Below are positions 32,020-49,920 of a stretch of DNA of 64,000 nucleotides, piece by piece. The DNA is from Gammaproteobacteria bacterium (GTDB taxonomy: Bacteria; Pseudomonadota; Gammaproteobacteria; Steroidobacterales; Rariloculaceae). Every line of letters starts with the position of its first letter. Position 1 is the first letter of the stretch. A program made the position numbers and the translations under genes. Below the pieces are notes generated by a model. The model was not told the origin of the DNA. It searched no databases and worked only from the letters and a program-made list of their open reading frames with translations. Location: NCBI GenBank assembly GCA_035548835.1, contig DASZSB010000194.1:13832-77831 (forward strand), given 5' to 3'.

Positions 32020-32173
32020 GGTGTGATTCAGCCCAATCATCCCCGATTCATGCTGCGCATCCGCGCCGGCGAAAACAAGCGGTTTCACCGTCGGCATTCG
32101 CAGACATCGCGGCGCGCGGCAGCCCCGCCCGGCGCCTTGACCCACGGCAGCGGCTCTGCAAAGGTTCCGGCTC

Positions 32174-33730
32174 ATGCACGCCCAGCGTTACGTCAACGCC
32201 GCCTTCGCCGCCTCGCTCGTAGTGTTCGCCGCCTGCACGATCAATCCGGTGACGGGCAACCGCGAGCTCGCGCTGATCTCGGCGGATCAGGAGATCGCGA
32301 TCGGCCAGGAGCAGTACGCGCCGTCGCAGCAGATGCAGGGCGGCGACTACTCGCTCGATCCTGCGCTCACGGCCTACGTGCGCGGCGTGGGCGCGAAGCT
32401 CGCGGCCGTCAGCGACCGCTCGCTGCCGTACGAATTCGTGGTGCTGAACAACTCGGTGCCGAACGCCTGGGCGCTGCCCGGCGGCAAGATCGCCGTGAAC
32501 CGCGGCCTGCTGACGGAGCTCAACTCCGAGGCCGAGCTCGCGGCCGTGCTGGGCCACGAGATCGTGCACGCGGCCGCGCGCCACGGTGCCATTGCCATGC
32601 AGCGCGGCCTGCTGCTCGGCGTGGTGGTCTCCGGCGTGCAGGTCGCCGCGCGCGGCGGCAACTTCGCCGGACTCGCCGTCGGCGCGGCCAGCGTGGGCGC
32701 GCAGCTGATCTCGCAGCGCAACAGCCGCGAGAACGAGCTCGAGGCGGACCAGTACGGCATGCAGTACATGGCGCGCGCGGGCTACGACCCGAGCGCCGCG
32801 GTCGCGCTGCAGGAGACCTTCGTGCGGATCTCGCAGCAATCCGGCGGCGAGCAGGGCCGCCTCGCGGCGCTGTTCGCGAGCCATCCGCCCTCCACGGAGC
32901 GCGTGGAGAAGAACCGCGCCACGGCCGCGACGCTGCCGAAGGGCGGCGACGTGGGCCGCGAGCGCTATCAGGCCGCCACCGCCGCTCTGCGCCAGCGGCA
33001 GCCGGCCTACGACGCCTACGACAAGGGCCGCGCGGCGCTCGCGGACAACAAACCGGCCGACGCCGAACGCTTCGCACAGGAAGCCGTGCGACTGCTGCCC
33101 GCGGAAGCGCAGTTCCACGCGCTGCAGGGCGACATCGCGCTGCAGCAGAAGCGCTACGACGAAGCCGTGCGCCACTACGGCGACGCCGTCGCCCGCAACG
33201 ATCGTTTCTTCTACTACCACCTGCAGAAGGGCATCGCGCACCGGCAGCTGCGTCAGTGGGACCCGGCGCGCACCGAGCTCGAACGCAGCGTGCAGCTGCT
33301 GCCGACCGCAGAGGGCTACTACGCGCTCGGCGTCGTCGCCGAGCAGCGCGGCGATCGGGCGGCGGCGCTCGAGCACTACGCGCGCGCGGCGCAATCGTCG
33401 GGCGCCGCGGGCCAGGCGGCGCAGGAGGCGGCCGTGCGACTCGACCTGCCGGCGAACCCCGGCAAGTACCTGGCGGCGCGGGGGACTCTGGACAGCAACG
33501 GCCAGCTGATCGTCGAAGTCGGCAACCCCACGCACATGGCGGTGACGGACGTGGTCGTCAGGGTGCGCTACGCCGACGCGCAGGGCACGATTCGCGAGCA
33601 GAGCCGCACGCTCGCGGGCCCGCTGCCAGCGGGTCAGACGCAGCGGCTGGCGACGGGGCTCGGGCCCTTCGCGCCGACCGCCACGCTCGAGGTCACGGTG
33701 ACGGCGGCCAGGCTGCCGCAGAGCCCGTAG
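32174..33730 (+). CDS. M48-family zinc metalloprotease with TPR repeats (BepA/YfgC-like lipoprotein)
   Basis: It has a lipobox (VFAAC) and an HEXXH motif in AAVLGHEIVHAAARHG. TPR-like repeats occupy the C-terminal half. Confidence 0.85.
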   Translation: MHAQRYVNAAFAASLVVFAACTINPVTGNRELALISADQEIAIGQEQYAPSQQMQGGDYSLDPALTAYVRGVGAKLAAVSDRSLPYEFVVLNNSVPNAWALPGGKIAVNRGLLTELNSEAELAAVLGHEIVHAAARHGAIAMQRGLLLGVVVSGVQVAARGGNFAGLAVGAASVGAQLISQRNSRENELEADQYGMQYMARAGYDPSAAVALQETFVRISQQSGGEQGRLAALFASHPPSTERVEKNRATAATLPKGGDVGRERYQAATAALRQRQPAYDAYDKGRAALADNKPADAERFAQEAVRLLPAEAQFHALQGDIALQQKRYDEAVRHYGDAVARNDRFFYYHLQKGIAHRQLRQWDPARTELERSVQLLPTAEGYYALGVVAEQRGDRAAALEHYARAAQSSGAAGQAAQEAAVRLDLPANPGKYLAARGTLDSNGQLIVEVGNPTHMAVTDVVVRVRYADAQGTIREQSRTLAGPLPAGQTQRLATGLGPFAPTATLEVTVTAARLPQSP

Positions 33731-34432
33731 CTACTCGGCCATCAGGCTGACGATCTGATCCAGCTTGAACGTGTAGCTGCGGCAGCCCGGGCGCAGCACG
33801 TCCGAGTCCGTCCAGCCCTGATAGCGCGAGCGGCGCAGTGCGGCCAGGATCGGCTCGCGGAAGATCTCGTCGGACAGCTCGATCAGCTCCGGCCGCTGGA
33901 TGACGCCGTTCGAATCGACGAAGAAACACGTCACGGCGTACCCCTGCTTGGCCTGACGAATGGCCTGCACCGGGTAGTACGGGGTCGCAGTGGTCACGGG
34001 CACGAGCGGCGGCAACGGCCGGCCCGTCGGCGCAACCGCGGGCGGCACCTCGCCCGAATCGAGCGCGGAGCACCACCAGCCGCCGACGTTCGCGAACGTG
34101 CGCCAGCCGCCCCCGAGCGTGGGCTGCCGCAGATCCGCGTTGAACTGCCGGCCCGTCTGCGGATCGCTGAACTCGAGCCGGCTGCCCTCCTGGAACCAGC
34201 CGGTCAACGCACTCCACGGGCTCGTGCGGTCCGCCTCGATGCGCGCGATGTGGGCCGCACCGCCGGATGCGAAATGCAGCAGCACGCGCTGATCGCCGAA
34301 ATCCGGGCGTCCGTAGAGCACGCAGCCCCACGTGCCGACGGGATCGATGCGCTCGGCCCGGGCGCTGCCCGGGACGGCCGCGGCGAGCAGCATCGCAAGG
34401 ACCACGAACGTGAACGCGCCGGCTGCGCGCAT
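33731..34432 (-). CDS. secreted protein with C-terminal TonB-C-like domain
   Basis: It has a signal peptide, a proline-rich linker (PPAVAPTGRPLPPLVP), then PYYPVQAIRQAKQGYAVTCFFVDSNGVIQRPELIE...AALRRSRYQ, a TonB C-terminal pattern. Its start overlaps the upstream stop (TAATG). Confidence 0.6.
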   Translation of the reverse strand: MRAAGAFTFVVLAMLLAAAVPGSARAERIDPVGTWGCVLYGRPDFGDQRVLLHFASGGAAHIARIEADRTSPWSALTGWFQEGSRLEFSDPQTGRQFNADLRQPTLGGGWRTFANVGGWWCSALDSGEVPPAVAPTGRPLPPLVPVTTATPYYPVQAIRQAKQGYAVTCFFVDSNGVIQRPELIELSDEIFREPILAALRRSRYQGWTDSDVLRPGCRSYTFKLDQIVSLMAE

Positions 34433-34947
34433 TACTGATGCTCCTCGACGGTGACGCTCGGCTGCAGCGTGCTCTCGTTGATCATGCCGCGAATCGTGGT
34501 CATCGTGCGTGCGCTCGGATTGATGGCTACTGCCCTCTCGAGATCCGCATTGGCGCGGCGATACTGCTTCTTCTTGTAGTAGGCGTAGGAGCGGTTGTTG
34601 TAAGCGTGCCAGTTCTGATCGTTGATCTGCAGCGCTTCGGTGCAGGTCCTGATCGCGAGATCGAGCTCACCCTTCGCGGCATAGGCCGCGCACAGATTCG
34701 AGAGGCCGGCGGCGCGGTCGCGCGTCGAGCCGGGCCGCGCGAGGCCGAGCTTCGTCAGGCGAATGCCGTCGTCGTACTGTTGCGCGCGGATGGCTTCGGC
34801 GCCGGCGGCGAGAAACTCGTTGCCCACACCGATCACGGTGCGACTGTCCGCGCTGGGCTTGGAGGGGTCCTGAAGCTGCGCAGGCTGGCCCGACGTGGCG
34901 CTCGCCACGCAATACACGGCTAGACCGCAGATGACCCAGCGCGCCAC
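34432..34947 (-). CDS. tetratricopeptide-repeat protein, secreted
   Basis: It has TPR-like helices (AIRAQQYDDGIRLTKLGL..., AYNNRSYAYYKKKQYRRANADLERAVAINP). I prefer the second GTG (34947), which is preceded by GGAGGAG, over the ORF-track start at 34962. Confidence 0.7.
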   Translation of the reverse strand: MARWVICGLAVYCVASATSGQPAQLQDPSKPSADSRTVIGVGNEFLAAGAEAIRAQQYDDGIRLTKLGLARPGSTRDRAAGLSNLCAAYAAKGELDLAIRTCTEALQINDQNWHAYNNRSYAYYKKKQYRRANADLERAVAINPSARTMTTIRGMINESTLQPSVTVEEHQ

Positions 34948-34976
34948 GTTACTCTCCTCCACGTTAGTATAGTACC

Positions 34977-36176
34977 GTGACCGAAGTCGCCGAAGCAGAA
35001 GCCCTGATCCTGGCCCACATGCCCCGGTTCGCGGCCCGCGAAGAGCCGCTGGCCGCCTGCGTGGACCGCGTGCTGGCGGAGGACATTGCGGCCGAGCGCG
35101 ACCAGCCGCCGTTCGACCGGGTGACCATGGACGGCATCGCCGTGGCCTTCCGTGAGTGGCAGGACGGCCGCCGGAAGTTCACGGTGGCCGGCACCCAGCC
35201 GGCCGGCGCGCCGCCCATGGCGGTGACCGGGCCCGGCCAGTGCGTGGAAGTCATGACAGGCACTGCCCTGCCGCAGGGCACCGACACCGTGATCCCGGTG
35301 GAGCGCATTACGCGCACGGGACCCGCGGCCGAAGTCGGCGCAGACGCCGTCGTCAAAGAGAATCAGTTCGTGCACCGGCGCGGCAGCGACCGTCTGGCCG
35401 GCGCTCCGGTGCTGCGCGCCGGCACGCGCCTCGGCCCGCCCGAGATCGCCGTGCTGGCTGGAGCCGGCCGCGCCACCGCCCGGGTGACCGAGCTGCCGCG
35501 GGTCGCCGTGATCTCCACGGGCGACGAGCTCGTCGACGCCGGCAAGCCCATCGCGGCCCACCAGATCCGCTCCACGAACGACCGCGCGATCGAGGCCAGC
35601 CTCGCGCGGCACCGGCTCGGCACGGTCACGCGCGCGCGGCTGCGCGACGACGCCAATGCGCTCGCGGTCGCCATCGACCGGCTCGATACCGAGCTCGACG
35701 CGCTCGTGCTGAGCGGCGGCGTGTCGATGGGTCAGTTCGACTTCGTGCCGTCGGTGCTGGAGGAGCTCGGCGCGAAGCTCGTGCTGCACAAGATCGAGCA
35801 GCGGCCGGGGCGGCCGATGTGGTTCGGCGTCAGCGCGCGCAGCAAGCCGATCTTCGCGCTGCCGGGCAATCCCGTGTCCACGCTCGTGTGCGCCACGCGC
35901 TATCTGCTGCCGGCACTGCGGGCGGCCTCCGGTCTCGCGCCAGCGCCGCCGGAGCTCGTGGAGCTCGCGGCCCCCGTCGAGGCGTCGCCGACGCTGACGA
36001 TGTTCGTTCCCGTGACGCTCTCGTGGTCCAAGCGCGGGGCCGCGCTCGCGCAGCCGCATCCGACGAACACGTCGGGCGACTTCGTGACACTGGCCGGCAC
36101 GGAGGGATTCGTGGAGCTCGCCGCGAAGCGCGGCAGCTACGCCGCGGGCACCGTGGCGCGTCTCTTCCGCTGGTGA
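34977..36176 (+). CDS. moeA: molybdopterin molybdotransferase
   Basis: PPFDRVTMDGIAV, VISTGDELV, LSGGVSMGQFDFV and FALPGNPVS are MoeA signature motifs. It starts at a GTG. Confidence 0.9.
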   Translation: MTEVAEAEALILAHMPRFAAREEPLAACVDRVLAEDIAAERDQPPFDRVTMDGIAVAFREWQDGRRKFTVAGTQPAGAPPMAVTGPGQCVEVMTGTALPQGTDTVIPVERITRTGPAAEVGADAVVKENQFVHRRGSDRLAGAPVLRAGTRLGPPEIAVLAGAGRATARVTELPRVAVISTGDELVDAGKPIAAHQIRSTNDRAIEASLARHRLGTVTRARLRDDANALAVAIDRLDTELDALVLSGGVSMGQFDFVPSVLEELGAKLVLHKIEQRPGRPMWFGVSARSKPIFALPGNPVSTLVCATRYLLPALRAASGLAPAPPELVELAAPVEASPTLTMFVPVTLSWSKRGAALAQPHPTNTSGDFVTLAGTEGFVELAAKRGSYAAGTVARLFRW

Positions 36177-36183
36177 GCGGCGG

Positions 36184-37320
36184 CTAGAACCAGAACGACA
36201 CGAACAGCTGGAAGACGTCCGCGTCGAAGCTGTACAACGGCTCGGTGCCGGCGGCGACCCCACGCGTGCGCAGGTCGCGGAAATCCTTGTAGTCGAACAT
36301 CATGTGATCGAGGATCACGTTCAACGTGCCTTTGTCGATGAACTTCCAGCCGCTGCGCACGATGTCGTAGGTTGCGCCGAGGCTCAGCGACTGGCTCGTG
36401 AACGTGCTGAGCTCCTTGTCGCGCGCGAGGAAATTCTGATAGTTCACGCGCGGGAACAGATCGCTGTAGAAATCGCCCTTGGTCTGCGAGTAGTTGCGGA
36501 TCTTGCCTTCGAACGTCCAGTGATCGACGGGGTGCGTATACCCGATCTCGAAGGTCCCGCTCTTCACGCCCCAGGTGTCGTGATAGTCGCGATACTCGGC
36601 CGACAGCGCGGCGCGATACGGCAGGAAATAGCGCATGCGCAGCGCGGCGGCGTCGCTCGTATGCGTGCGCGGATAGATTTCGCGCTGGTAGCTGTAGCCG
36701 AGCGGACTGCCCGGGTCGGCGTAACGCACCTGCCGGTACGGGTTGTTCAGAAAACCTTCGTCCGTGATCGTCTCGAACGAGAGGCCCACGAGCAGGTTCT
36801 TCGTCAGGATCTGCGAGACGCCGAGCCGGTAGCTCTGCGTCTTGACGGTGTCGTGGAACGTGGGATCGCCGCGACGACGCACCTCGTTGTTGCCGAGCGA
36901 ATACCCCAGCGAGATCGTCGTCAGATCGCCGAACACGTCCTGGCTCACGCCGAACGTGAACGTGTTCGCCGTGTAGTCGTTCTCGACGCTGTTGATGACG
37001 CCGATGTTCATCGTCCAGCGGTCGTGCAGGTAATCGAGCCCGATCGACTTCTGCGTGCGCTCTTCCTTGTATGGGCTCGCCGTCGTGATGACGTCGATGG
37101 ACGCGCTCGACACCTGGTCGACGTAGTAGTTGGCCGAGACCGAGAACTTCTGCGCGAACTGCTTGCGAACGAGCACCGAGGGGCCCTGGATCGTCACGCC
37201 GCCGCCGTCGTAGCGGTGCATCAGCACGTCGATGCGGTCCTCCGGCAGCACGCCGGCCACGCCGGCACGTGCGACCGCCATGAGCACCAGACCGAAGACG
37301 ACTCCGCGTATCACGTGCAC
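36184..37320 (-). CDS. DUF3570-like outer-membrane beta-barrel protein
   Basis: It shows an alternating beta-strand pattern and a terminal aromatic residue (FVSFWF). YDGGGVTIQGPSVLVRK... resembles DUF3570. It is paired with a DUF4266-like gene 1 nt upstream. The GTG start at 37320 is uncertain. Confidence 0.7.
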   Translation of the reverse strand: MHVIRGVVFGLVLMAVARAGVAGVLPEDRIDVLMHRYDGGGVTIQGPSVLVRKQFAQKFSVSANYYVDQVSSASIDVITTASPYKEERTQKSIGLDYLHDRWTMNIGVINSVENDYTANTFTFGVSQDVFGDLTTISLGYSLGNNEVRRRGDPTFHDTVKTQSYRLGVSQILTKNLLVGLSFETITDEGFLNNPYRQVRYADPGSPLGYSYQREIYPRTHTSDAAALRMRYFLPYRAALSAEYRDYHDTWGVKSGTFEIGYTHPVDHWTFEGKIRNYSQTKGDFYSDLFPRVNYQNFLARDKELSTFTSQSLSLGATYDIVRSGWKFIDKGTLNVILDHMMFDYKDFRDLRTRGVAAGTEPLYSFDADVFQLFVSFWF

Positions 37321-37321
37321 C

Positions 37322-37567
37322 TCAGTTGCAGCCGCAGCCGCCGCCCGCGCCGCCGGTCGCGCCACGGGCGCCTTCGCGCGCGTCGTGAACGTGATCGATG
37401 TACGAGCTCGACACCGGATTGCGGTCGAGCGACATGATCGGGTCGGCCATGTGATCGCGCTCGTAGGGCTTCACCCAGGGCTCGATGCTGCAACCGCCGA
37501 GCACGCCGCAAGCCAGCGCCGCCAGAGCGACGCCCGCACCCGCACGACGAACGTGGAGCATGGACAT
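37322..37567 (-). CDS. DUF4266-like small lipoprotein
   Basis: The 81 aa product has a lipobox (VLGGC) and the characteristic C-terminal GGGCGCN that I associate with DUF4266. Confidence 0.7.
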   Translation of the reverse strand: MSMLHVRRAGAGVALAALACGVLGGCSIEPWVKPYERDHMADPIMSLDRNPVSSSYIDHVHDAREGARGATGGAGGGCGCN

Positions 37568-37572
37568 GGGAA

Positions 37573-38064
37573 TCACTCGCGCAGCAGCGCGCGAACCTCG
37601 TTCTGGTAATCGCCCTCGTACCCCGGCTTGTAGCCGTGATGCAGGTAGCGCATCGTGCCGTCCTTCGCGACGATCACGGTGCTCGGCATCGTTTCCACCT
37701 TGTAGAGCTTGCTGACCTCGCTCTTCGTGTCGAACAGCACGGGGAACGACACCGGGGTTTCCTTCAGCCACTTCCGGGCGCCCTCGGGGTTGTCCTCGAC
37801 GTTCACGGCCAGCAGCTTGAAGCCGAGCTTGTTGTAGCGCTGATAGAGCGCCTCGAGATGCGGCATCTCCTGCCGGCACGGGACGCACCACGTGGCCCAG
37901 AAGTTGATCATCACGACATCGCCCTTCAGCGAGCCGAGCGATACGTTGCCGCCGTCGCGCGACGGCAGCGTGAATCCGGGTGCCGGCCCCTTGACCGAGT
38001 CCGCCGCGAAGGCCAGCGACGCCAGGAGAGCACTCACGACGATGACCGAAAACGCTCGCAACAT
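37573..38064 (-). CDS. TlpA-family periplasmic thiol-disulfide oxidoreductase
   Basis: It has a signal peptide and the thioredoxin-fold active site INFWATWCVPCRQEMP. The ATG is preceded by GGAGG. Confidence 0.85.
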   Translation of the reverse strand: MLRAFSVIVVSALLASLAFAADSVKGPAPGFTLPSRDGGNVSLGSLKGDVVMINFWATWCVPCRQEMPHLEALYQRYNKLGFKLLAVNVEDNPEGARKWLKETPVSFPVLFDTKSEVSKLYKVETMPSTVIVAKDGTMRYLHHGYKPGYEGDYQNEVRALLRE

Positions 38065-38088
38065 TGGGGACCTCCGTGTCTGCCGAAA

Positions 38089-38748
38089 CTAGAAGAAGAA
38101 CGTCACGCCGAGGTGGGCGCCCAGGTTGTGGGACGTCTTGGCCTGGCCCAGCAAGTCGGTGTCGAATATCTGGTCCTCGACGTCGGCATGAACCGCAAGC
38201 CAGTCGAGCGGCATGATCCGGTAGCCGAGCCCTATGTTCATGGTGAACCGGTCATCCCCCGCGAACTTGGTCTTGCCGACGCCGCCGATCAGATACGTCG
38301 CGGTGTTCCACGCGCGCTTCTTACCGAAAAACCCTTCGCCGGGCAGGATGTCGTACCCCACCGAGACGTTATAGTAGGTGTAGTCGCGCTCGGCATCTGT
38401 GAGCAACTGCGCAGCGCCGCTCAGGCGCTCGAAGCTGGTCAGGCCGGCCGTCGTGCGGCCCGCTCCGAGCTGCACGAACACCTTGTCCGTGACGTGATAC
38501 GCGAACGTGGCGCCGGTCGCGTTGTGGACGCCGAAGTCCTCGATGCTGAGGCTGCCCGCGAACACGCCGACCTCGAAGTCCGATTTCTTGATCTTCGGAA
38601 CCTTGATCTCGCGGCGCTCGACGTCGGGCTCGATCACGGGCGGCTGGCCGTTGTCGTCGCTGCGCACGAGCCTGTCGCGGCCACAGCCGCTCAAGACGCC
38701 GACGGCGAGCGTCAACGTCAGAAGAAGAACGACACTCCTGCCTTCCAT
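38089..38748 (-). CDS. outer-membrane beta-barrel lipoprotein
   Basis: It has a lipobox (VLSGC), alternating strands and a C-terminal GVTFFF. Confidence 0.65.
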   Translation of the reverse strand: MEGRSVVLLLTLTLAVGVLSGCGRDRLVRSDDNGQPPVIEPDVERREIKVPKIKKSDFEVGVFAGSLSIEDFGVHNATGATFAYHVTDKVFVQLGAGRTTAGLTSFERLSGAAQLLTDAERDYTYYNVSVGYDILPGEGFFGKKRAWNTATYLIGGVGKTKFAGDDRFTMNIGLGYRIMPLDWLAVHADVEDQIFDTDLLGQAKTSHNLGAHLGVTFFF

Positions 38749-39461
38749 TCTCGTATGTCCTCGTTTTCATTGCGGCTCGTGAACACGACGTGCGCCTTGT
38801 ACTCGGCGCGGAACACGAACCGGCGCGAGAGGTACATGCGCATGCCTGCACCTACCAGCGCGAGCGAATCCGTGCGATCGACCGTGGCGACCAGCGTCGC
38901 CTTCGGATGCGTGGTGATGACCCCGGCGCCGAGCGTGAAGTACGGCGATATGCGCCAGTCGGGATACATCAGATGAACGATGTTGATGGTCGCGAGCTTG
39001 CTGTCGGCGAACTGGCCGATGGCCTCCGACACCCAGATCTCGCCCGAGAGATTCGGCGTGAATCCGTGCGCGCCGTAGGCGGCGATCACGTTCGCGCCGC
39101 CGAAGTCGCCATACAGCGCGCCGACCTCCCAGCGCCGCGCGGCGTACTCCTCGAGACCCGGCTCGGGCAGGTCGAACGGCTCGCCGTTCAGATTCAGCGT
39201 GGTCTTCAGCTGGTCGCGATGCACCCACCCCACCTGGCCGCGCGGCACACGCACCTTGAACCAGTCCGTGCGCTGCATCAGCAGCGCGATCTGCTCGCCC
39301 CGCTCCGCGACGAAGAAGATCGGATAACCCGCTCCGGGACCCGTGTGCAGATCGATGTACGGGTCGTCGATCACGACCTCCCTGTACTGCCGTTCCGCGC
39401 CTGCTGCAGTAGCTGCGACGAAAAGCTGGCATAGCGCGAGAACGAGCCACCATCGACGCAT
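38718..39461 (-). CDS. SH3b-like domain fused to an outer-membrane beta-barrel
   Basis: After a signal peptide comes an SH3-like segment (LHTGPGAGYPIFFVAERGEQIALLMQRTDWFKVRVPRGQVGWVHRDQL), then barrel strands ending in GVSFFF. The start lies directly after the upstream stop. Confidence 0.65.
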   Translation of the reverse strand: MRRWWLVLALCQLFVAATAAGAERQYREVVIDDPYIDLHTGPGAGYPIFFVAERGEQIALLMQRTDWFKVRVPRGQVGWVHRDQLKTTLNLNGEPFDLPEPGLEEYAARRWEVGALYGDFGGANVIAAYGAHGFTPNLSGEIWVSEAIGQFADSKLATINIVHLMYPDWRISPYFTLGAGVITTHPKATLVATVDRTDSLALVGAGMRMYLSRRFVFRAEYKAHVVFTSRNENEDIREWKAGVSFFF

Positions 39462-42134
39462 CTACATCACCGGAGCCTTGAACGGGTCGTTGTAGTACTG
39501 GGCACCGATGTCGAGCCACTCCGCGATCAGGCGCAGCTCGTCCTGGGTCATGAAGCCCCTGTGCGGCTCGTTCGGACAACCCGTGCCGCCCGCGTCGAAG
39601 CAGCCGAAGAAGCGCGACGCACGCGCACCGGCCGAGCTCATCGGCGGCGAGATCGAGACGGGCGCCATGATCGGATTGCCCATCGCGTCGACACCGATCT
39701 GCACCTGCTGATCCACGACGGCGCCGTTCATGAGCACCTGCTGGTTGTCGGCGAACAGCAGCTCGCGGTAGGCGTTGAACTGGTCGGGCTCGTCGGCCGA
39801 GAGCCCGTCGGACAGGTCGAGCTGGCCGGCGGGCACCATCGGCTGGTTTGCCGCATCCACGGGCGCGTGGCAGCCGCCCTGCGAGCAGGTGTGGTCCTCG
39901 AGCACGGTCATCGTCATCGGGTCGATCACCTGCCGCGGCGTGCTCCACAGCGGGTGGATGTGCGTCTCGTAGTTGATCTCGATGCGGCACGACGGCGCCC
40001 ACTTCGTGATGCAGTTCGTGCTCACGGGCGCGGGCGTCGTCAGATTGGTATACAGATACGAGAACGACGTGGCCGGCGTGGCGACCGCGGAATCCGTCCA
40101 CACGTCCGTGTACTTCAGGTCGACGCTCGGAATCAGCGCGGCACAGTCCGTCTGGCAACTCACGCGCGTGCGCGTCTCGGCCATCGTGTCGCCCGCATCC
40201 GGCGAGAACGCCGGGACGCTGTTCTGGAACGGCACGCCCGTGCCCGTGGCACCCGGGTACACCGAATTGAACGCGTCGCTGCGGCCGTGCGACAGCCCGC
40301 TCTGCGCGTCGTGACAGCCGTTGCACTTCAGCTCCTGGCCGGGCACCACCTGCAGCCAGTTCTGGTGGCGTGCCGAGATCCGGCGGCCGTTCGCGTCGAG
40401 CACGCTGACGGCGAGCGCCACGTTCGCGGGCACTTTCACGCGCACCGAGCCGTCCGGCTCGATCGGGGCGTAGCCGATGATCTCGCGCATGCCCTGCTGG
40501 ATGTTCGGGCCGAAGGCCGTGGGGCGAATGTTCACGTCCTGCGGATCCGGGATCGCTACGGCCTTCTCGACGCGCAGGAAGCGCGCCGGCCGGTTGGCGA
40601 CCGGCGTCTTCACCGGATCGGCGGTATCGGCGATGTTCACGGACGCCATGCCGTCGATGTCGTAGACGCTGCGGATGTTCAGGATGCCCACGCCTTCGGC
40701 AACGAGCTTCGAGTCGAAGTCGACGCCGGCCACCTTGTCCGGGATCGACTGCGGATTCGCGCGCGGCTGCGCCGCCACCACGTCGCCGATCAGCACGCCT
40801 TCCTCGCCCGTGACGATCGGCAGCTGCGTCTGCGTCTGCGGGTCGTACATCCAGATGCCGTAGAGCGGCGGCGCAACGACCGGGTTCGCCGCGGCCAGCT
40901 TGTCATCCGTGCACGGCACGAAGATCGTCTTCGTCGCGTCGTTCGGATCGGGCTCGGCGAGCCGGCAGATCTCCCAGCTCACGAGCACGCGGCCGGTGCC
41001 GTCCCACAGTGGGAACGCGGAGCTGTAGCGCCCGCCCTTCGACGGCAGCAGGTCCGTTCGCACCTGATTCGGCGTGGCCGGCGTCTGCGCGGGGCCCGTC
41101 ATGCCCGGGGAGCTCGCGACGGACTGCGTGTTCTCCACGTACGTCTTCGTATCGATGACCGCGACCGCGCCGCCGAGCTCCGGATGATCGAAGGGCCGGA
41201 CGATCGCCATGACGCGGCCGTCCGGCATCTCGCGCGGATCGAGGAACTGCACCTGCGTGTTGTCCGTGCCGGTCAGGTGACTGTGCGCGCCGTACACCAG
41301 CTCGAGATCCGTGCCGTCCGGGTTCATCTGATAGAGGTTGATGCCGTTGACGCTGCCGGCGTGGTCCCAGCGGCTGAACAGCACCTTGCCGTTCGCGAGC
41401 ACGATCGGATCGTAGTCGTTGCTTTGGTTGAACGAGATCTGATGCAGATCGCTGCCGTCGTCGCGCATCACGTGCAGCACGAACGCGGGATTGCGACGGT
41501 TCTCGTCGCGCGCGTCGAACTGCGGCTTGCCCTCGTCGAGCAGCACGGCCTTCGCCTGGCGCTGCCGGGTGGAGACGAACAGGATGCGGCCGTCGGGCAG
41601 GTAGTGGGGCGAGATGTCCTGCCCCGCTTCCGCCGTGATGTCGGACGCGATGATGCGATGCAACGTATCGGTAGCGAACGTGTACTCCCAGATGTTCCAC
41701 GTCGGCTGTTCGTCCATGGTCTTGTTCGGGTCGAACGGCCCGCGCATCGCGAACAGCACTTTCTTGCCGTCCGTGGAGATCTCCACGCCCATGACATCGC
41801 CCTGCCCCTGCGTCTCGCGCAGCGTCACGTTGCGCTCGGGCGCCGTGGGCGATGCCCGGTCGCGCACATAGAGGTCGGTGCCGACGTTGAATCGCAGCAC
41901 GTCGCGCACGTCCGTCGGCGACTGGACCTGCATCTGATCGTCGAACAGCGGGCCCTTCGTATAGGCGATCGCGAAATCCGGTGCGACGGGGTCCGGCTGC
42001 TGACCGCTCCCGACACCGAGGTTGCCGTCACTGTTGCCGCATGCAGCGAGCACGAACACCGTGATCGTCACGAGCGCGAGCTGCACTCCCGTGCGCAGGC
42101 GCCCGATCATGACAGTCCCTGTCCGATGGCTCAT
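39462..42134 (-). CDS. large TolB/PD40-like beta-propeller lipoprotein with C-terminal heme-c motifs (possibly HzsA-related)
   Basis: It has a lipobox (VLAAC) and propeller-like repeats (ISTDGKKVLFAM, PHYLPDGRILFVS, VLANGKVLFSRW, MNPDGTDLELVY). CNGCH and CSQGGCH motifs occur in the C-terminal third. The ATG at 42134 is preceded by GGAGAGGGA. Confidence 0.75.
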   Translation of the reverse strand: MSHRTGTVMIGRLRTGVQLALVTITVFVLAACGNSDGNLGVGSGQQPDPVAPDFAIAYTKGPLFDDQMQVQSPTDVRDVLRFNVGTDLYVRDRASPTAPERNVTLRETQGQGDVMGVEISTDGKKVLFAMRGPFDPNKTMDEQPTWNIWEYTFATDTLHRIIASDITAEAGQDISPHYLPDGRILFVSTRQRQAKAVLLDEGKPQFDARDENRRNPAFVLHVMRDDGSDLHQISFNQSNDYDPIVLANGKVLFSRWDHAGSVNGINLYQMNPDGTDLELVYGAHSHLTGTDNTQVQFLDPREMPDGRVMAIVRPFDHPELGGAVAVIDTKTYVENTQSVASSPGMTGPAQTPATPNQVRTDLLPSKGGRYSSAFPLWDGTGRVLVSWEICRLAEPDPNDATKTIFVPCTDDKLAAANPVVAPPLYGIWMYDPQTQTQLPIVTGEEGVLIGDVVAAQPRANPQSIPDKVAGVDFDSKLVAEGVGILNIRSVYDIDGMASVNIADTADPVKTPVANRPARFLRVEKAVAIPDPQDVNIRPTAFGPNIQQGMREIIGYAPIEPDGSVRVKVPANVALAVSVLDANGRRISARHQNWLQVVPGQELKCNGCHDAQSGLSHGRSDAFNSVYPGATGTGVPFQNSVPAFSPDAGDTMAETRTRVSCQTDCAALIPSVDLKYTDVWTDSAVATPATSFSYLYTNLTTPAPVSTNCITKWAPSCRIEINYETHIHPLWSTPRQVIDPMTMTVLEDHTCSQGGCHAPVDAANQPMVPAGQLDLSDGLSADEPDQFNAYRELLFADNQQVLMNGAVVDQQVQIGVDAMGNPIMAPVSISPPMSSAGARASRFFGCFDAGGTGCPNEPHRGFMTQDELRLIAEWLDIGAQYYNDPFKAPVM

Positions 42135-42638
42135 GGAACGTCCCTCTCCATCCATTGATCCCGAATGGAGGTTCGCTTCCGGGCTCCGTGCGTCAGTCAA
42201 CGGTTCACTCCGCGCAGTGCGCGGCACGCGCGTCCCGCGCGTGCCGTGCGTTTGCATAATGTCCGGGCCACCGGCCCGCGATGCGACGTAATGTCGGCGC
42301 CCCGTAATCATGGGCATCGACCTTGTCGCCTTCCGTTAACGTGATCACAGAACCATCCCGGATCGAACCTGCATCAAAACTGTGACCGATCTCTCCGAAC
42401 GATCGATCGGTACCCCAGATCATCGCGAACGACTTCACTAAACACTCGCGCGTCGTCGCGTCGCACACGCGCTGCGTGCTCTCAATCACCGCGGGGAGCT
42501 TACACGCCGGTTACGGTGCTTCCGAAACCGTCGCCGTTTTGAGACGTCTGTGATTTCCCACATTACCCGGCGGTTTTTTTTGTGTTTTTATTCGGCTCGC
42601 ATTGCGGCAGTGACATCAACACAACGGGACGAATCGTG

Positions 42639-43841
42639 ATGACTAGCAGGATGCATTGGATGTCGACGCTGAGCACGTTCAGCAGCCATCGCTCGATGTG
42701 GCGGTTGTTCATCGCAGTCGGGCTCGTCGTCTGCGGACTCTCGGTCGCGCTCGCCGGACCGCGCGAGCAGGCGGCCCGGATTCACGACCGGTTGGCCGGC
42801 GTGCCCGCGAGCGACGCCGTGCTGACGCAGATGGCGGCGCAACTGCCCGGCAATCCGACCGCGGCAGCGAACATCGCGATGCAGAACCCCAATTTCTACT
42901 CGGTCACGCTGAAGAACTTCGCGGCGCCATGGACGAACCGCGACCGGTCGGCGTTCGTGCCGCTGAACGACTACGTCACGCTCGTGATGGGCATGGTGCG
43001 CGACAACGTGCCGTTCGATCAGATCCTGTCGGGCGACCTGCTGTACGTCGCACCCGGGGTGTCGCCGGCGCCCTCACCGAGCAACAACGACCACTTCGCC
43101 GCACTCGAGGCGCGGATGCGCGATCCCGCGTTCAACCAGAGCGAGCTCTCGCAGACCACGCAGTCGGCCACGTACGGCATTCCACCGGCGGCCACCGCGG
43201 GCGCGATCACGACGCGCGCCGCGTCGGAGGCGTTCTTCGTGGCAGGCACGAACCGCGCGATGTTCCGCTTCACGCTGATCAACCATCTCTGCATGGACAT
43301 GGAGCAGGTGCTCGATACGAGCGTCACGCCGGACAACGTCCGTCAGGACGTCTCGCGCAGCCCGGGCGGCGACAGTCGTGTGTTCATGAACAACTGCATA
43401 GGCTGCCACGCAGGCATGGACCCGCTGGCGCGTGCGTTCGCGTACTACGACTACGACACCACGGCCGGCCGTCTGGTGTACACGCCGGGCACGGTGCAGG
43501 CGAAGTACTTCAACAACAACAAGACGTTCCCCGACGGCTTCATCACGCCCGACGATTCGTGGAACAACCACTGGCGGCAGGGGCAGAACGCCCTGATCGG
43601 CTGGAACCCGGCGCTGCCGGGCCAGGGCCAGGGCGCGAAGTCGCTCGGTCAGGAGCTCGCCGGCACGACCGCGTTCGCGCAGTGCCAGGTCAAGAAGGTG
43701 TTCAAGGCGGTCTGCTTCCGCGATCCGGTCGATCAGGCCGATCGCAATCAGGTCGCCACGATGACCACGAGCTTCCGCAACAACAACTTCAACCTGCGAC
43801 AGGTCTTCGCCGAGTCCGCAGGGTATTGCATGGGCCAGTAG
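42639..43841 (+). CDS. exported mono-heme protein with planctomycete PSD/DUF1585-DUF1588-like motif
   Basis: It has a signal-peptide-like segment (MWRLFIAVGLVVCGLSVALA) and NNCIGCHAGMDPLARAFAYYDY, a CXXCH followed by DP. The start is uncertain: ATG at 42639, 42651 or 42660, with AGGA before the last. Confidence 0.7.
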   Translation: MTSRMHWMSTLSTFSSHRSMWRLFIAVGLVVCGLSVALAGPREQAARIHDRLAGVPASDAVLTQMAAQLPGNPTAAANIAMQNPNFYSVTLKNFAAPWTNRDRSAFVPLNDYVTLVMGMVRDNVPFDQILSGDLLYVAPGVSPAPSPSNNDHFAALEARMRDPAFNQSELSQTTQSATYGIPPAATAGAITTRAASEAFFVAGTNRAMFRFTLINHLCMDMEQVLDTSVTPDNVRQDVSRSPGGDSRVFMNNCIGCHAGMDPLARAFAYYDYDTTAGRLVYTPGTVQAKYFNNNKTFPDGFITPDDSWNNHWRQGQNALIGWNPALPGQGQGAKSLGQELAGTTAFAQCQVKKVFKAVCFRDPVDQADRNQVATMTTSFRNNNFNLRQVFAESAGYCMGQ

Positions 43842-43865: not shown

Positions 43866-46466
43866 ATGCAGTACGCAATCTCCATCACCGGCACGTCGCT
43901 CGCGCGCGTGACGAATCGTCTCCGCGTGCCGCACGCGCGGCTGGTCGCGACCGGCGTCGCGCTGGTCGCCGCGCTGCTCGCAGGCTGCAGCGGCGGCAGT
44001 GGCGCGCCGGTCGAGGTCACGCCCGGCGCCGGCAGCGGGCCCGTGACGCAGACCTACACGGGCCCCGCGCCCACCACGGCCGACGTGCAGTCGTTCAAGA
44101 TCAATCTGTGGGACAACATCCACGCCGATAACCGCTGCGGTACGTGCCACAGCGAGAAAGGCGGTCAGGTGCCGATGTTCGCCCGCGGCGACGACGTGAA
44201 CCTGGCCTACGCGGCCGCGAACCTCGTCGTGAACCTCGCCTCCCCGAAGGACTCCATGATGGTCCAGAAGGTCGGCGGCGGTCACAACTGCTGGCTCGCG
44301 AGCCCCGCGGCCTGCGCGGACATCCTGACGACGTGGATCACGAACTGGGCGGGCGCGACCGCCGGCGGCGGCAGCCGCAAGATCCAGCTCGAGCCGCCCG
44401 TGATCCGCGACCCCGGCACGAGCAAGAACTTCCCGGACGACCAGGGACTGCTGTACTCCCAGACGGTCTACCAGATCACGTCGAAGTTCTGCTCGAACTG
44501 CCACAGCTCGAGCTCGTCGCTGAAACAGCAGCCGTTCTTCGCGGAAGGCCCGACCACCAGCGCGACCGCCATTCAGGCGGCGTACGAGGCCGCCAAGCCG
44601 AAGATGGATCTCGACGATCCGGCGAACTCGCGGTTCGTGCTGCGGCTGCGTAACGAGTCGCACAACTGCTGGACCTCGAGCTGCGCGAACGACGCCAACG
44701 CGATGCAGGCCGCGATCACGCAGTTCGCCTCCGGCATCACACCGACCACGGTCGACCCGAACCTCGTCACGAGCAAGGCCACGACGTTGTACGAAGGCAC
44801 GATCGCGTCCGGCGGCAGCCGCTACGACGCGAACGTGATCGCCATGTACGAGTTCAAGACCGGCCAGACCTGCGGCACGTCGATCACGGGCGCCTGCGCC
44901 ACCGCGTACGACACCAGCGGCGTCGACCCGGCCATGGATCTGACGCTGTCGGGCAACGTGCAGTGGTTCGGCGGCTGGGGCCTGAACTTCTCGGGCGGCA
45001 AGGCGCAGGCCTCCACGGCCGCCAGCGCGAAGCTGAAGCGCCTGATCAACGCCACGGGCGAATACTCGATCGAGGCGTGGGTCACGCCCGGCAACGTGGT
45101 GCAGGAGGACATGCGCATCGTGAGCTACTCGGGTGGCCTCATGCAGCGCAATTTCAACCTCGGCCAGACGATGTACAACTACGACTTCTTCAACCGTTCG
45201 GACAAATCGGACGCCAACGGCAACCCGCAGCTGTCGACGCCGGACGCCGCCGAGGTGCTCCAGGCCTCCCTGCAGCATGTCGTCGCCACGTTCGACCCGG
45301 CAAACGGCCGCAAGATCTATGTGAACGGCGTGCTCGTGGCCTCCATGGATCCGGTGCCGGGCGGCCTGCTGAACGACTGGGACGACACTTTCGCGTTCGT
45401 GCTCGGCAACGAGGTGTCCGGCACGCGCATGTGGAACGGCGTGATCCGTTTCGTCGCGATCCACAACCGGGCTCTCACGCCCGCACAGATCCAGCAGAAC
45501 TTCCAGGCCGGCGTCGGCGAGAAGTTCTTCCTGATGTTCAGCGTGGAGCACCTGACGAACGTGCCCGAGAGCTTCGTGGTCTTCGAGGCCTCGCAGTTCG
45601 ACAGCTACAGCTACCTGTTCCGCAAGCCTTTCTTCATCAGTCTCGACGGGACACAGCATCCTGACGCGCTCGACGTGAAGGGCCTGCGCATCGGCATCAA
45701 CGGTGCCGAGGCGCACGTCGGCCAGTCGTTCGCGAACCTCGACACGCAGATCAGCAGCTCGCTGTACAGCACCGAGACCGGCCAGACGCTGCTCGATCTC
45801 GGCGCCGTCGTGCCGCTCGAGAAGGGGCCGGACTCCGACGAGTTCTTCCTGACCTTCGACAAGCTCGCGGCGCACAGCTTCAGCCGGCCGCCCCCGGCGA
45901 CTCCGCCGGCTCCGACTCCGGTGGATCTGCCGCCCGCGTCGGCGATCGGCGTGCGCACGTTCGACGAGATCAGCGCCACGATGGCCGCGATCACCGGCGT
46001 GAGCCAGCGCGATACGCAGGTCGCCAACACGTTCGCAACCGTGCGCCAGTCGCTGCCCGCCGATGCGGACATCCAGGCCATCCTGGCGTCGCACCAGGTG
46101 GCAATCGCGCAGCTCGCGATCGGCTACTGCGACGCGCTCATGGAAAACCGCAGCACGACGATCGCGCGTGACACGATGTTCCAGGGATTCAACTTCGGCG
46201 CAACTCCGGCCGTCGCGTTCGCCAACGAGAACGCGCTGTTCAATCCATTGCTCGACCGCGTGCTCGGCGTCACGCAGCTCGCCAGCCAGCCGAACAGGGC
46301 CGCCGTGCAGCAGGAGCTCGACCAGCTCGTGAACGGCATTCCCGGCGACAGCACGCGGCCCGGCCTGCTGAATTCCGGCACGACCAACGACGCTGCGCGG
46401 ACGCGCAACATCGCCAAGGCGGTGTGCTCGGCCGTGATCGGCAGCGCCGCAATGCTGGTTCAGTAA
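43866..46466 (+). CDS. di-heme LamG-domain lipoprotein
   Basis: It has a lipobox (LLAGC), the heme motifs CGTCH and CSNCH, and a central LamG/concanavalin-like segment (GEYSIEAWVTPG...HVVATFDPANGRKIYVNGVLV...WNGVIRFVAIHNRALTPAQIQQNF). SD-like GGGAG and AGGA elements precede the ATG. Confidence 0.75.
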   Translation: MQYAISITGTSLARVTNRLRVPHARLVATGVALVAALLAGCSGGSGAPVEVTPGAGSGPVTQTYTGPAPTTADVQSFKINLWDNIHADNRCGTCHSEKGGQVPMFARGDDVNLAYAAANLVVNLASPKDSMMVQKVGGGHNCWLASPAACADILTTWITNWAGATAGGGSRKIQLEPPVIRDPGTSKNFPDDQGLLYSQTVYQITSKFCSNCHSSSSSLKQQPFFAEGPTTSATAIQAAYEAAKPKMDLDDPANSRFVLRLRNESHNCWTSSCANDANAMQAAITQFASGITPTTVDPNLVTSKATTLYEGTIASGGSRYDANVIAMYEFKTGQTCGTSITGACATAYDTSGVDPAMDLTLSGNVQWFGGWGLNFSGGKAQASTAASAKLKRLINATGEYSIEAWVTPGNVVQEDMRIVSYSGGLMQRNFNLGQTMYNYDFFNRSDKSDANGNPQLSTPDAAEVLQASLQHVVATFDPANGRKIYVNGVLVASMDPVPGGLLNDWDDTFAFVLGNEVSGTRMWNGVIRFVAIHNRALTPAQIQQNFQAGVGEKFFLMFSVEHLTNVPESFVVFEASQFDSYSYLFRKPFFISLDGTQHPDALDVKGLRIGINGAEAHVGQSFANLDTQISSSLYSTETGQTLLDLGAVVPLEKGPDSDEFFLTFDKLAAHSFSRPPPATPPAPTPVDLPPASAIGVRTFDEISATMAAITGVSQRDTQVANTFATVRQSLPADADIQAILASHQVAIAQLAIGYCDALMENRSTTIARDTMFQGFNFGATPAVAFANENALFNPLLDRVLGVTQLASQPNRAAVQQELDQLVNGIPGDSTRPGLLNSGTTNDAARTRNIAKAVCSAVIGSAAMLVQ

Positions 46467-48316: not shown

Positions 48317-49351
48317 TCAGCGGGCGTGCAGCGTCGACTGCAGCTCGGCGAGGACCGACAGCGCGATCGACTCCGGCGAGTCCGCCCCGATGTCGAGGCC
48401 GACCGGCCCCTTGAGACGCGCGCGCAGCGGCGCAGCCGCGTCGCCGAGATCGGCCAGCAGCCGGTCGCGCCGCGCTCGCGGTCCGAGCACGCCGACGTAG
48501 CGATGCGTGTGCTGGGCGAGCTCGCCGAGATACTTGCGGTCGGTCGGCAGGTGGTGACTCATGACGACGACCGCATCGAACTCGGCCAGCGGCACCTCGC
48601 GCGCCACCTGCCCCGCCTCCACGAGCACCTTGCGGTCGGCGCGATCGAACCCCGGTCGCGCGACGTACGCCGGTCGATGATCGGCCACGGTCACGAACCA
48701 GCCGAGCTCCACGGCCATGCCGACCAGCGGCACGGCGTCGAGCCCGCCGCCGAGCACGAGCAGCCTCGGAATCGGGCGCAGGGGGGCGTGGAGCACGGTG
48801 GTACCACCCTCGGCGACGAGGCAGACCTGACCGTCCGCAGCGGCGCGCCGCGCACCGGCCACGATCGCCGCGGGCGCCGCCGCGGCGAACCCGAACGCGT
48901 CCGTCTTCTCGGCCGTCACGATCACGGTGCCCCCTGCGTCGGCGCCTTCGATCACCGTGGCGAGCCCGCCGCCGCGGCTGCCGCGCAGCAGCGTCGCGAT
49001 CGACTCGAACGGCTCGTATCCGCGCGCAGGCAGCAACGGCTGCAGGAACACCCGCAGCAGGCCATTGCAGCCGACGGCAAGCCCCCAGAGCTCGTCCGCC
49101 GCATCGCGCAGATCATAGGTGACGGCAGCCGGTCGATCGGCCGCGATGACCTGGCGGGCGCGCTCCGCGAGATCGCCCTCGAGGCACCCGCCGCTGACGA
49201 GCCCGCGATAGTCGCCGCTCCCGGCAATCAGGATGCGATGGCCCGCCTTGGTGTAGGTCGAGCCGAGCGTGTCGTAGACCGTGGCGAGCACCAGCGGCTC
49301 GCCGGCGGTCCGCCACGCTTCGAAAGACTGCAGGATCTGCCGAGCGCTCAT
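48317..49351 (-). CDS. XdhC/CoxI-family molybdoenzyme maturation protein
   Basis: LVLATVYDTLGSTYTKAGHRILIAGSGDYRGLVSGGCLE and the Rossmann-like LLVLGGGLDAVPL match the family. I placed the start at MSARQIL (49351). Confidence 0.8.
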   Translation of the reverse strand: MSARQILQSFEAWRTAGEPLVLATVYDTLGSTYTKAGHRILIAGSGDYRGLVSGGCLEGDLAERARQVIAADRPAAVTYDLRDAADELWGLAVGCNGLLRVFLQPLLPARGYEPFESIATLLRGSRGGGLATVIEGADAGGTVIVTAEKTDAFGFAAAAPAAIVAGARRAAADGQVCLVAEGGTTVLHAPLRPIPRLLVLGGGLDAVPLVGMAVELGWFVTVADHRPAYVARPGFDRADRKVLVEAGQVAREVPLAEFDAVVVMSHHLPTDRKYLGELAQHTHRYVGVLGPRARRDRLLADLGDAAAPLRARLKGPVGLDIGADSPESIALSVLAELQSTLHAR

Positions 49352-49553
49352 GCGTGCGAGGACCCATCTTCGGGGCGGCCAATATGCCAGCGGCGAAGCC
49401 CGCTTGCACCCCGGCACGGAGGGCTACCCCCTCCGGAGCATCCGGACATAATGCCCCGCACGCTGGCTGGCCGGGTCAACGCCTGACCCGCACCGTCAGT
49501 CCGAGTGGACATAAAGGCCGCGCACACGTACTGCCGGCGCGGCCGTCGATGGG

Positions 49554-49892: not shown

Positions 49893-49920
49893 GACGCACA
49901 AGCAGACTCCGGACGAAGCA

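Follow-up and report, generated by a model that had tools for sequence, protein, structure and literature searches.

A conserved gammaproteobacterial envelope locus joining a dihaem relative of hydrazine synthase alpha to a DUF3570/DUF4266 module

We describe an envelope locus in a Gammaproteobacteria bacterium of the family Rariloculaceae, contained in a 64,000-nucleotide (nt) stretch of contig DASZSB010000194.1 (assembly GCA_035548835.1), which as a whole we call the window. Its centre is a row of six minus-strand genes, named A to F here, at positions 36184-42134, from which a trio of plus-strand genes, X to Z, diverges. The nine genes constitute a unit (of eight to ten genes in relatives) that is conserved across many Gammaproteobacteria, the six genes being its outer-membrane half, and the arrangement is far beyond chance. 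Judged by its sequence, protein A is a full-length dihaem relative of hydrazine synthase alpha and is not a hydrazine synthase; D, E and F represent a known and partly characterised thiol and flavin system. We tentatively favour the reading that the locus encodes a multi-cofactor redox complex of the outer membrane and periplasm. The features are the following:

39462-42134, minus strand: gene A, 890 amino acids (aa), lipoprotein with lipobox LAAC (Cys32, Gly at +2), homologue of hydrazine synthase alpha
38718-39461, minus strand: gene B, 247 aa, signal peptide, SH3_3 and a small C-terminal beta-barrel ending in GVSFFF
38089-38748, minus strand: gene C, 219 aa, lipobox LSGC, OMP_myx_plus barrel domain ending in GVTFFF
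37573-38064, minus strand: gene D, 163 aa, signal peptide, TlpA/ResA-like thioredoxin fold, WCVPC at nt 37876-37887
37322-37567, minus strand: gene E, 81 aa, lipobox LGGC, DUF4266, C-terminal CXC (CGCN, nt 37325-37336)
36184-37320, minus strand: gene F, 378 aa, GTG start, signal peptide, DUF3570, ending in FVSFWF
42135-42638, no strand: divergent intergenic region of about 500 nt, presumed shared promoter/operator
42639-43841, plus strand: gene X, about 400 aa, secreted monohaem protein, CIGCH at nt 43395-43409, distantly PSCyt3/PSD2-like
43866-46466, plus strand: gene Y, 866 aa, lipoprotein (LAGC) with LamG, a C-terminal helical region and two haem modules
46495-48111, plus strand: gene Z, 538 aa, exported by twin-arginine translocation (Tat), RRQLI at nt 46561-46575

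Conservation and anatomy of the unit

Two samples carry the evidence for a conserved unit. One genome per species was scanned with protein A, giving 59 loci in which A is 41-86% identical to that of the window; the hosts are Woeseiaceae, Steroidobacteraceae, Chromatiales, metagenome-assembled genomes (MAGs) of Pseudomonadales, many unclassified soil and sediment Gammaproteobacteria, and two cultured Alteromonas strains, Alteromonas antoniana MD_567 and Alteromonas sp. H39. Metagenome contigs were scanned independently with F and yielded 80 further loci. The relatives sampled extend down to about 40% identity, and presence counts out of 49, 47 or 31 refer to loci with enough flanking sequence only. 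In tblastn searches with the window proteins, order and strands were the same throughout the genome loci, with X, Y and Z read in one direction and A, B, C, (D), E and F in the other. Gene B follows A in 56 of 59 genome loci, and B, C and F all follow it in 48 of 49; the X-Y-Z trio is divergent from A and adjoins it in every case (47/47), in agreement with the proposal of the original prediction that the trio acts with the six genes. The metagenome loci, although reached through the other end of the operon, repeat the pattern: A was found in 31 of 31, and E adjoins F in 72 of 73. The co-occurrence of the six genes with the trio, which the original prediction put forward as its check, was thus seen in the genome loci, and the order and strands recurred in the 80 loci from metagenomes. 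Gammaproteobacteria of sediments and soils carry the nine-gene locus widely. The TlpA-type gene D behaves differently, being present in all 31 metagenome loci and in 19 of 49 genome loci. A thioredoxin-fold gene is indeed part of the combination, as had been claimed, but it is not core.

The six-gene layout was as first described, with junctions of 0 (A/B), -31 (B/C), 24 (C/D), 5 (D/E) and 1 nt (E/F). The codon-position GC pattern of the six open reading frames (ORFs) is that of real genes, the start codon and ribosome-binding site of A are conserved in an alignment of ten loci, and the 31-nt overlap of B and C is also present in orthologous loci. All six products carry the export signals attributed to them, lipoboxes in A, C and E and signal peptides in B, D and F; the signals of B, D, F and X are of the Sec type and that of Z is Tat. 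In Gammaproteobacteria, lipoproteins without Asp at +2 usually go to the outer membrane. Read from the sequence, none of the lipoproteins A, C, E and Y has Asp at this position, and A, C and E are therefore predicted to reside in the outer membrane. The three aromatic, barrel-type C-termini of B, C and F are likewise real and are kept in nearly all orthologues. The domains named by the original prediction for profile searches were matched in Pfam and NCBIfam (the HZS_alpha middle domain, SH3_3, DUF4266 and DUF3570), PD40 being borderline.

Two starts deserve a comment. A public gene call (L062:4626-5282) starts B 29 codons late, so that the signal peptide is lost; we favour the longer start because the N-terminus is conserved among orthologues and because it abuts the stop of A with a 0-nt junction. 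The start of X is uncertain: its ORF opens at 42582, and the public call gives a protein of 393 aa.

Haem, thiol and flavin sites

Protein A matches the middle domain of HZS_alpha (Pfam PF18582) with an E-value of 8.7e-14 and 52.3 bits, against a cut-off of 26.6. Its first haem motif, CNGCH (residues 604-608, nt 40311-40325), lies in this middle domain, and the unusual CX4CH motif, CSQGGCH (residues 750-756, nt 39867-39887), in the C-terminal domain. Both motifs had been singled out in the original prediction, and both withstand comparison: no Cys or His of either motif varies among 39 homologues, and C750, C755, H756 and the downstream H858 (nt 39561-39563) are invariant. A phmmer search of the Protein Data Bank (PDB) with A gave a single match, hydrazine synthase alpha (5c2v_A), in four collinear segments that comprise two parts of the propeller, the middle domain up to CXXCH, and the C-terminal helix; CNGCH of A is aligned to CSGCH of 5c2v_A. 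A Foldseek search of the PDB with the predicted model of A also placed 5c2v_A first, with an alignment along the entire protein (E 1.4e-18), and TolB propellers came next (E about 1e-8). The earlier label of A as a TolB/PD40-like protein is correct as to the propeller fold, but it understates the collinearity with hydrazine synthase alpha; the TolB equivalog TIGR02800 scores 17.5 bits against a cut-off of 343, and the likeness is limited to that fold.

The two haem sites of A would differ in kind. In the numbering of hydrazine synthase alpha, which includes alphaHis587 and alphaHis772, the latter is the distal ligand of the bis-His haem alphaII (PMC12758564). H858 of A is probably its equivalent, as it is aligned to chain residue 745 and the offset is 27 (chain His560 in CSGCH being alphaHis587). 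At haem alphaI of the enzyme, on the other hand, Tyr591 is the proximal ligand and His587 is displaced towards a zinc (PMC12758564). There is no Tyr at +4 after CNGCH of A, where the sequence continues as CNGCHDAQSGLSHGR (CNGCH-DAQSGLSHGR); the haem is therefore probably ligated by His, and the ligation by Tyr591 seen in alphaI is absent. The hydrazine_alpha equivalog NF052339 scores 50.7 bits with A against a cut-off of 800, and Pfam and NCBIfam searches of the nine locus proteins found no domains of the beta (propeller) or gamma (CCP/MauG-like dihaem) subunits. It is the missed equivalog cut-off, the absent Tyr ligand and the lack of a beta- or gamma-type partner that lead us to conclude that A is not a hydrazine synthase.

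The D-E-F end of the operon brings in thiols and would bring in flavin. F matches DUF3570 (PF12094; 2.5e-35, 122.6 bits, cut-off 25) and is a probable outer-membrane beta-barrel; a PDB sequence search with F gave no significant match. E matches DUF4266 (PF14086; 3.3e-22), and its GGCGCN end is conserved. The original prediction regarded DUF3570, DUF4266 and TlpA as a recurrent combination without a known function, and this view does not hold. ApbE has been shown biochemically to attach flavin mononucleotide (FMN) covalently to DUF3570 of Chlorobium luteolum at two [S/T]GA[S/T] motifs, and more than 500 gene clusters unite ApbE and DUF3570 with a thioredoxin-like protein and a DUF4266 protein whose C-terminus bears a CXC; DsbD is encoded in about half of these clusters as well (PMC8238504). 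The model of Méheust, Light et al. (eLife 2021) is one of hybrid thiol/flavin electron transfer outside the cytosol, with its end function left open (PMC8238504). The flavin cofactor was missed by the original prediction and is the best mechanistic lead.

The candidate acceptor sites of the window F are SSAS (residues 71-74) and TTAS (79-82), encoded at nt 37075-37110 in the sequence VDQVSSASIDVITTASPY. Among 45 orthologues the pattern is D-x-[VI]-[ST]-[SG]-A-S-I-D-V ... x-A-S, with Ala-Ser invariant at both sites, and the canonical forms SGAS and TGAS occur, aligned with the window sites, in the orthologues of Alteromonas, of Pseudomonadales and of locus L036. Among the nine proteins, a conserved flavinylation-type motif is present in F alone; a TGAT in C was considered as a third flavin site, is not conserved and was set aside as chance. 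Genes for ApbE do adjoin the locus in some relatives. Nine of the 50 metagenome loci with downstream sequence have one 25-240 nt beyond F, and in the eight of these with a readable F, site 1 is SSAS and site 2 is in most cases TTAS, which matches the window. ApbE also stands beside 3 of the 59 genome loci. In L042 its gene (Pfam 2.5e-81) follows Z on the strand of Z after 33 nt, and in the two Alteromonas genomes it is no more than about 2-3 kb away from Z. As ApbE in these relatives adjoins the same type of locus with the same site variants, we infer that the window F receives its flavin from an ApbE whose gene lies elsewhere in the genome.

D carries the CXXC of the original prediction (WCVPC) in a thioredoxin fold, with matches to AhpC-TSA (1.1e-30) and Redoxin (1.5e-27). 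Its best NCBIfam match is ResA (2.8e-32), but it stays below the curated cut-offs of ResA (112 vs 170), TlpA (77 vs 230) and DsbE (64 vs 123), and from its sequence we assign it to the broad ResA/TlpA/DsbE group of thioredoxin-fold CXXC proteins, as an accessory part of the locus. A Pseudomonadales MAG that has no TlpA between C and E carries another thioredoxin-fold gene just downstream of F (L059:16122-16331), and the thiol partner may thus be replaceable.

B has an SH3_3 domain (4.8e-8) and a conserved FF terminus; its matches to OMP_b-brl and to TIGR04565 (34.2, cut-off 60) are below the cut-offs. C matches TIGR04565, OMP_myx_plus, at 9.4e-44 with a score of 149.2, above the same cut-off of 60. 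Although we considered B and C as paralogues, their pairwise similarity is not significant beyond the C-terminal signal.

The divergent trio adds three more haem motifs and an exported protein of no assigned family. CIGCH of X is invariant. The window X matches PSCyt3 (DUF1588) and PSD2 (DUF1585) at 14 to 15 bits, with cut-offs of 26 to 27; of 14 orthologues, 13 have weak matches to PSCyt3 and 10 to PSD2 (best 4.2e-5), the two domains standing in their proper order, and a PDB sequence search with X gave no significant match. Y has two repeated CXXCH...HNCW modules (CXXCH at nt 44136-44150 and 44490-44504) with both motifs conserved, and a Laminin_G_3 domain (3.7e-23) that was found in 14 of 14 orthologues; its cytochrome c matches are weak. 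X and Y were compared as possible paralogues and no similarity was found. No protein of the locus is more strongly conserved than Z: 180 of its 538 columns reach 95% conservation or more, and its twin-arginine signal is invariant. Among 1.84 billion representative proteins, 1210 are related to it at E<=1e-3 and 279 at E<=1e-30. Nevertheless, neither Z nor 13 orthologues and 10 distant relatives match any Pfam family even at E<=1-10, and there is no NCBIfam or PDB sequence match; a resemblance to DUF1501/DUF1552, Tat-exported partners of PSCyt proteins, was considered and was not confirmed by any profile match for Z, its orthologues or its distant relatives. In a Foldseek search with the model of Z, enzymes of the alkaline-phosphatase superfamily dominate the top 50 PDB hits, all at E >= 0.05 and not significant; Z may have such a fold.

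Between A and X, an alignment of the ten nearest loci revealed five blocks conserved at the nucleotide level (42281-42566). One of them, GTTCTGTGATCACGTTAACGG at 42333, has the palindrome GTGATCAC within it and is seen again in loci of the Woeseiaceae type, some 80 nt upstream of A; another, GTAATGTGGGAAATCACAGACGTCT at 42542, has the form TGTGG-N4-TCACA. The blocks are probably operator or promoter elements that serve a regulator. The intergenic region has no Rfam or sigma-70 match, and no Fur, FNR or CRP box in it rises above the window background; across the locus, searches found no promoters, terminators or Rfam families.

The bounds of the unit follow from its surroundings. In the window it is flanked by genes for an M48 peptidase, a TonB_C-like protein (33731-34432), a tetratricopeptide repeat (TPR) protein (34432-34962) and MoeA on one side and for XdhC on the other, and these are kept only in the nearest clade. 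Genes for the molybdenum cofactor thus stand on both sides in the window clade, MoeA at 34977-36176 on the plus strand and an XdhC-type insertion chaperone at 48317-49417 on the minus strand; the arrangement is kept only in the nearest nine or so loci, and its conjunction with the Tat-exported Z may be a coincidence. An XdhC neighbour family of 32 loci proved to be a single-linkage artefact of spurious ORFs in high-GC sequence, the gene being truly adjacent in 9 loci. In 31 genome loci Z is immediately followed, on its own strand, by a tenth gene (L003:2314-3654(-) and L027:2282-3625(-) are examples), which encodes a cytoplasmic S-adenosylmethionine methyltransferase of the CARME/N2227 (carnosine N-methyltransferase) type with an N-terminal CxxC...CxxC ribbon; it is found neither in the window nor in its four nearest relatives. 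Two contigs of MAG JABDOQ01 (Woeseiaceae Site_A34) each carry a copy of the locus, one with a complete A-to-F operon (L014) and the other ending within C (L024); either the locus is truly duplicated or the bin mixes strains. Elsewhere in the window are a 791-aa protein at 29800-32175 on the minus strand, which matches GSDH (glucose/sorbosone dehydrogenase, a pyrroloquinoline quinone-type propeller) over residues 127-473 only, and a type IV pilin at 49807-50451.

A putative thiol-flavin-haem relay and its rivals

The original prediction suspected a redox-active envelope assembly, and this suspicion has gained in substance: the products are exported or targeted to the outer membrane, and their haem, thiol and flavin-site motifs are conserved. 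Our own reading, held with some reservation, is of an outer-membrane and periplasmic complex with two dithiol centres, two FMN and five c-type haems, in which a thiol-flavin relay is wired to the haems of A. A periplasmic ApbE, encoded elsewhere, would put FMN on Ser74 and Ser82 of F, and F, lipoprotein E with its CXC and, in loci that have it, thioredoxin D with its CXXC would together form a relay of electrons from thiols to flavin, as has been proposed for DUF3570. The relay would in turn be wired to c-type haems, with lipoprotein A as the predicted partner. In A, the haem held by CX4CH and His858 would be of the bis-His electron-transfer type, and the His-ligated haem of CNGCH, in the middle domain beside the propeller, would be the probable substrate site. 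B and C may hold A at the outer membrane or assist its assembly there, and X (one haem), Y (two haems and LamG) and Z would belong to the same unit, either linking it to other electron carriers or binding and processing the substrate. Since thiol and flavin couples are of low potential, the reductive direction seems the likeliest, from a cytoplasmic reductant through a putative DsbD/CcdA-type protein to D and E, on to FMN-bearing F, to the haems, and finally to an oxidised substrate at the outer membrane. Whatever the substrate, its chemistry is not hydrazine synthesis.

Several observations weigh against this relay. Neither ApbE (tblastn with the E. coli protein, even at E<=10) nor a DsbD/CcdA membrane domain (query E. 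coli DsbD, thioredoxin-fold matches only) was found in the 64-kb window, the former being absent also from most related loci and the latter from all of them; both electron entry and flavinylation are for this reason assumed in the present genome. SSAS and TTAS of the window F deviate from the published [S/T]GA[S/T] in the replacement of Gly and are candidate ApbE sites, and F is taken for a barrel because of its C-terminal signal and of the insolubility noted in the published experiments. The AlphaFold models of A (pLDDT 62.8) and Z (pLDDT 59) are of low confidence. TlpA is missing from about 60% of the genome loci, and at a single locus, L044 (1-12390), A-B-C occurs without E-F nearby and with unrelated opposite-strand genes downstream, a hint that A-B-C can be separated, as a module, from (D)-E-F.

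The same proteins could serve other ends. D, E and F might be a dedicated ResA/CcmG-like system of thiol reduction that keeps apocytochrome cysteines reduced for haem attachment, especially those of CX4CH in A and of CXXCH...HNCW...C in Y. ResA, the best NCBIfam match of D (2.8e-32), is after all an apocytochrome disulfide reductase, and one of the five c-haem motifs of the locus is non-standard. However, it is D that is so often absent while E and F are nearly always there, modules of E, F and a thioredoxin are widespread with ApbE and without cytochromes (PMC8238504), and an adjacent ApbE and conserved flavin-acceptor serines would be superfluous for thiol maturation; we consider this explanation unlikely. 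Doubtful to a similar degree is the reduction and uptake of metal, most obviously iron, in which flavins and haems at the outer membrane would reduce a metal such as Fe(III), and DUF3570 or the small barrels would pass the product inward. The meeting of outer-membrane barrels and redox lipoproteins in one locus would suit such a role, but the conserved intergenic region has no Fur box (best match 11/19), no gene for an iron-uptake transporter, siderophore or VIT1 lies in or next to the conserved unit, the sole TonB-related match is the small TonB_C-domain protein in the flank kept in the nearest clade only, and the LamG and Tat proteins would be left without a role.

Two further explanations turn on what A and its neighbours resemble. 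The middle-domain haem of A could handle hydroxylamine, NO or a related nitrogen compound, to detoxify or convert it with electrons from the flavin/thiol relay, X and Y. In its favour, A runs collinear with hydrazine synthase alpha and has lost neither haem site nor the alphaHis772 equivalent, and the Woeseiaceae and Steroidobacteraceae hosts come, by their record titles, from sediments and soils with active nitrogen cycling. Yet the catalytic peculiarities of alphaI are absent with the Tyr at +4, the hydrazine_alpha score lies far under its cut-off, the locus holds no beta/gamma-type (CCP/MauG-like) partner, and other non-anammox homologues also lack the key residues (Hägglund et al., PMC12758564), so we rate nitrogen-oxide chemistry as improbable. 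No more credible, in our view, is a structural or transport role, that is, a TolB/Pal-like scaffold or a polymer machine in which LamG binds the polymer, Z is a hydrolase, the barrels are channels and the haems merely sensors. It can point to the TolB-like propeller of A, the lectin-type LamG of Y, the sole fold hints for Z, which are to alkaline-phosphatase-superfamily hydrolases and transferases, and a published link between PSCyt-type proteins that carry carbohydrate-binding modules and the metabolism of carbohydrates (PMC5615132). The TolB equivalog score of A speaks against it, the fold evidence for Z is not significant, and five invariant c-haem motifs, two flavin sites, a CXC and a CXXC make too many redox centres for a sensor. 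The thiol-flavin relay to the haems of A, in its turn, may be carried further than we would ourselves readily go: the DUF3570 barrel with its two FMNs, plugged or partnered by DUF4266, might be a new outer-membrane electron conduit, unrelated to MtrCAB, that wires a periplasmic thiol reductant to surface-associated A for small-molecule (possibly N-oxide) chemistry in abundant Gammaproteobacteria of sediment and soil. We regard this extension as a speculative long shot.

Relation to known systems and meaning

The closest precedent for the D-E-F core is the family of DUF3570/DUF4266/thioredoxin/ApbE(+DsbD) clusters (PMC8238504). The window shares with them a thioredoxin-fold protein, DUF4266 with CXC and DUF3570 with two acceptor sites, and in some orthologous loci ApbE adjoins the module. 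It differs in having no ApbE or DsbD, in its SSAS and TTAS sites, in a thioredoxin of the AhpC-TSA/Redoxin type rather than PF13899, and in its company, a dihaem A, two small barrels and the cytochrome/LamG/Tat trio, none of which is in the main text of PMC8238504. Our literature searches found neither the joining of D-E-F to dihaem A, the small barrels and X-Y-Z, nor anything relevant on a flavinylated outer-membrane barrel or on HZS-like genes in Woeseia. While the core is known, its union with A, B, C and X-Y-Z is new in the literature searched.

With hydrazine synthase alpha of Kuenenia stuttgartiensis (5C2V), A has in common the N-terminal propeller, the CXXCH middle domain and the C-terminal haem domain, with an EW(L/I)D(I/L)GAQ C-terminal helix and the distal His of haem alphaII. 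A differs in being a lipoprotein, in the CX4CH form of its second motif, in having no Tyr591-type ligand and no beta or gamma partner, in an identity of about 14% (Foldseek alignment) and in entirely different genomic partners. Hägglund et al. (2025) described non-anammox homologues, none with a known function, and clades of them paired with beta-gamma-like genes (PMC12758564); Gammaproteobacteria are never mentioned in the main text of that paper. The trio recalls the PSCyt-PSD cytochromes of planctomycetes and Verrucomicrobia (PMC5615132), with a weak PSCyt3 followed by PSD2 in X, a cytochrome and a lectin-like domain in Y, and a conserved Tat-exported protein of unassigned function alongside. 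The matches of X are below the Pfam thresholds, however, Z belongs to no Pfam family, and the architecture is split over two genes.

The likeness to MtrCAB conduits is one of functional analogy only: in both, an outer-membrane barrel, redox lipoproteins and periplasmic cytochromes are encoded in one locus. There is no homology save for faint MtrC-domain matches in 4 of 14 Y orthologues (E 0.055), the proteins here have few haems each, and the cofactor of the barrel would be flavin and not a decahaem insert. TolB-Pal similarly offers the propeller fold of A and outer-membrane lipoproteins, but there are no Tol genes here, A has haem domains and its equivalog score is far under the cut-off.

Metagenomic surveys take HZS-alpha-like genes as a sign of anammox potential in many phyla (e.g. 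PMC11828985). As the large gammaproteobacterial clade of A lacks beta and gamma partners and the Tyr ligand and sits in a different locus, its members are not to be counted as hzsA. The locus also gives a testable context to four families, DUF3570, DUF4266, the non-anammox HZS_alpha proteins and the Tat-exported Z family, the last of which has about 1200 representatives, is covered by a model in neither Pfam nor NCBIfam and could be defined as a new family. Its occurrence in two cultured Alteromonas strains (L037 and L050) makes genetics and biochemistry feasible. If our reading is right, the DUF3570 flavin/thiol module can couple to outer-membrane c-type cytochromes, and the picture of flavinylation outside the cytosol would be wider than so far drawn.

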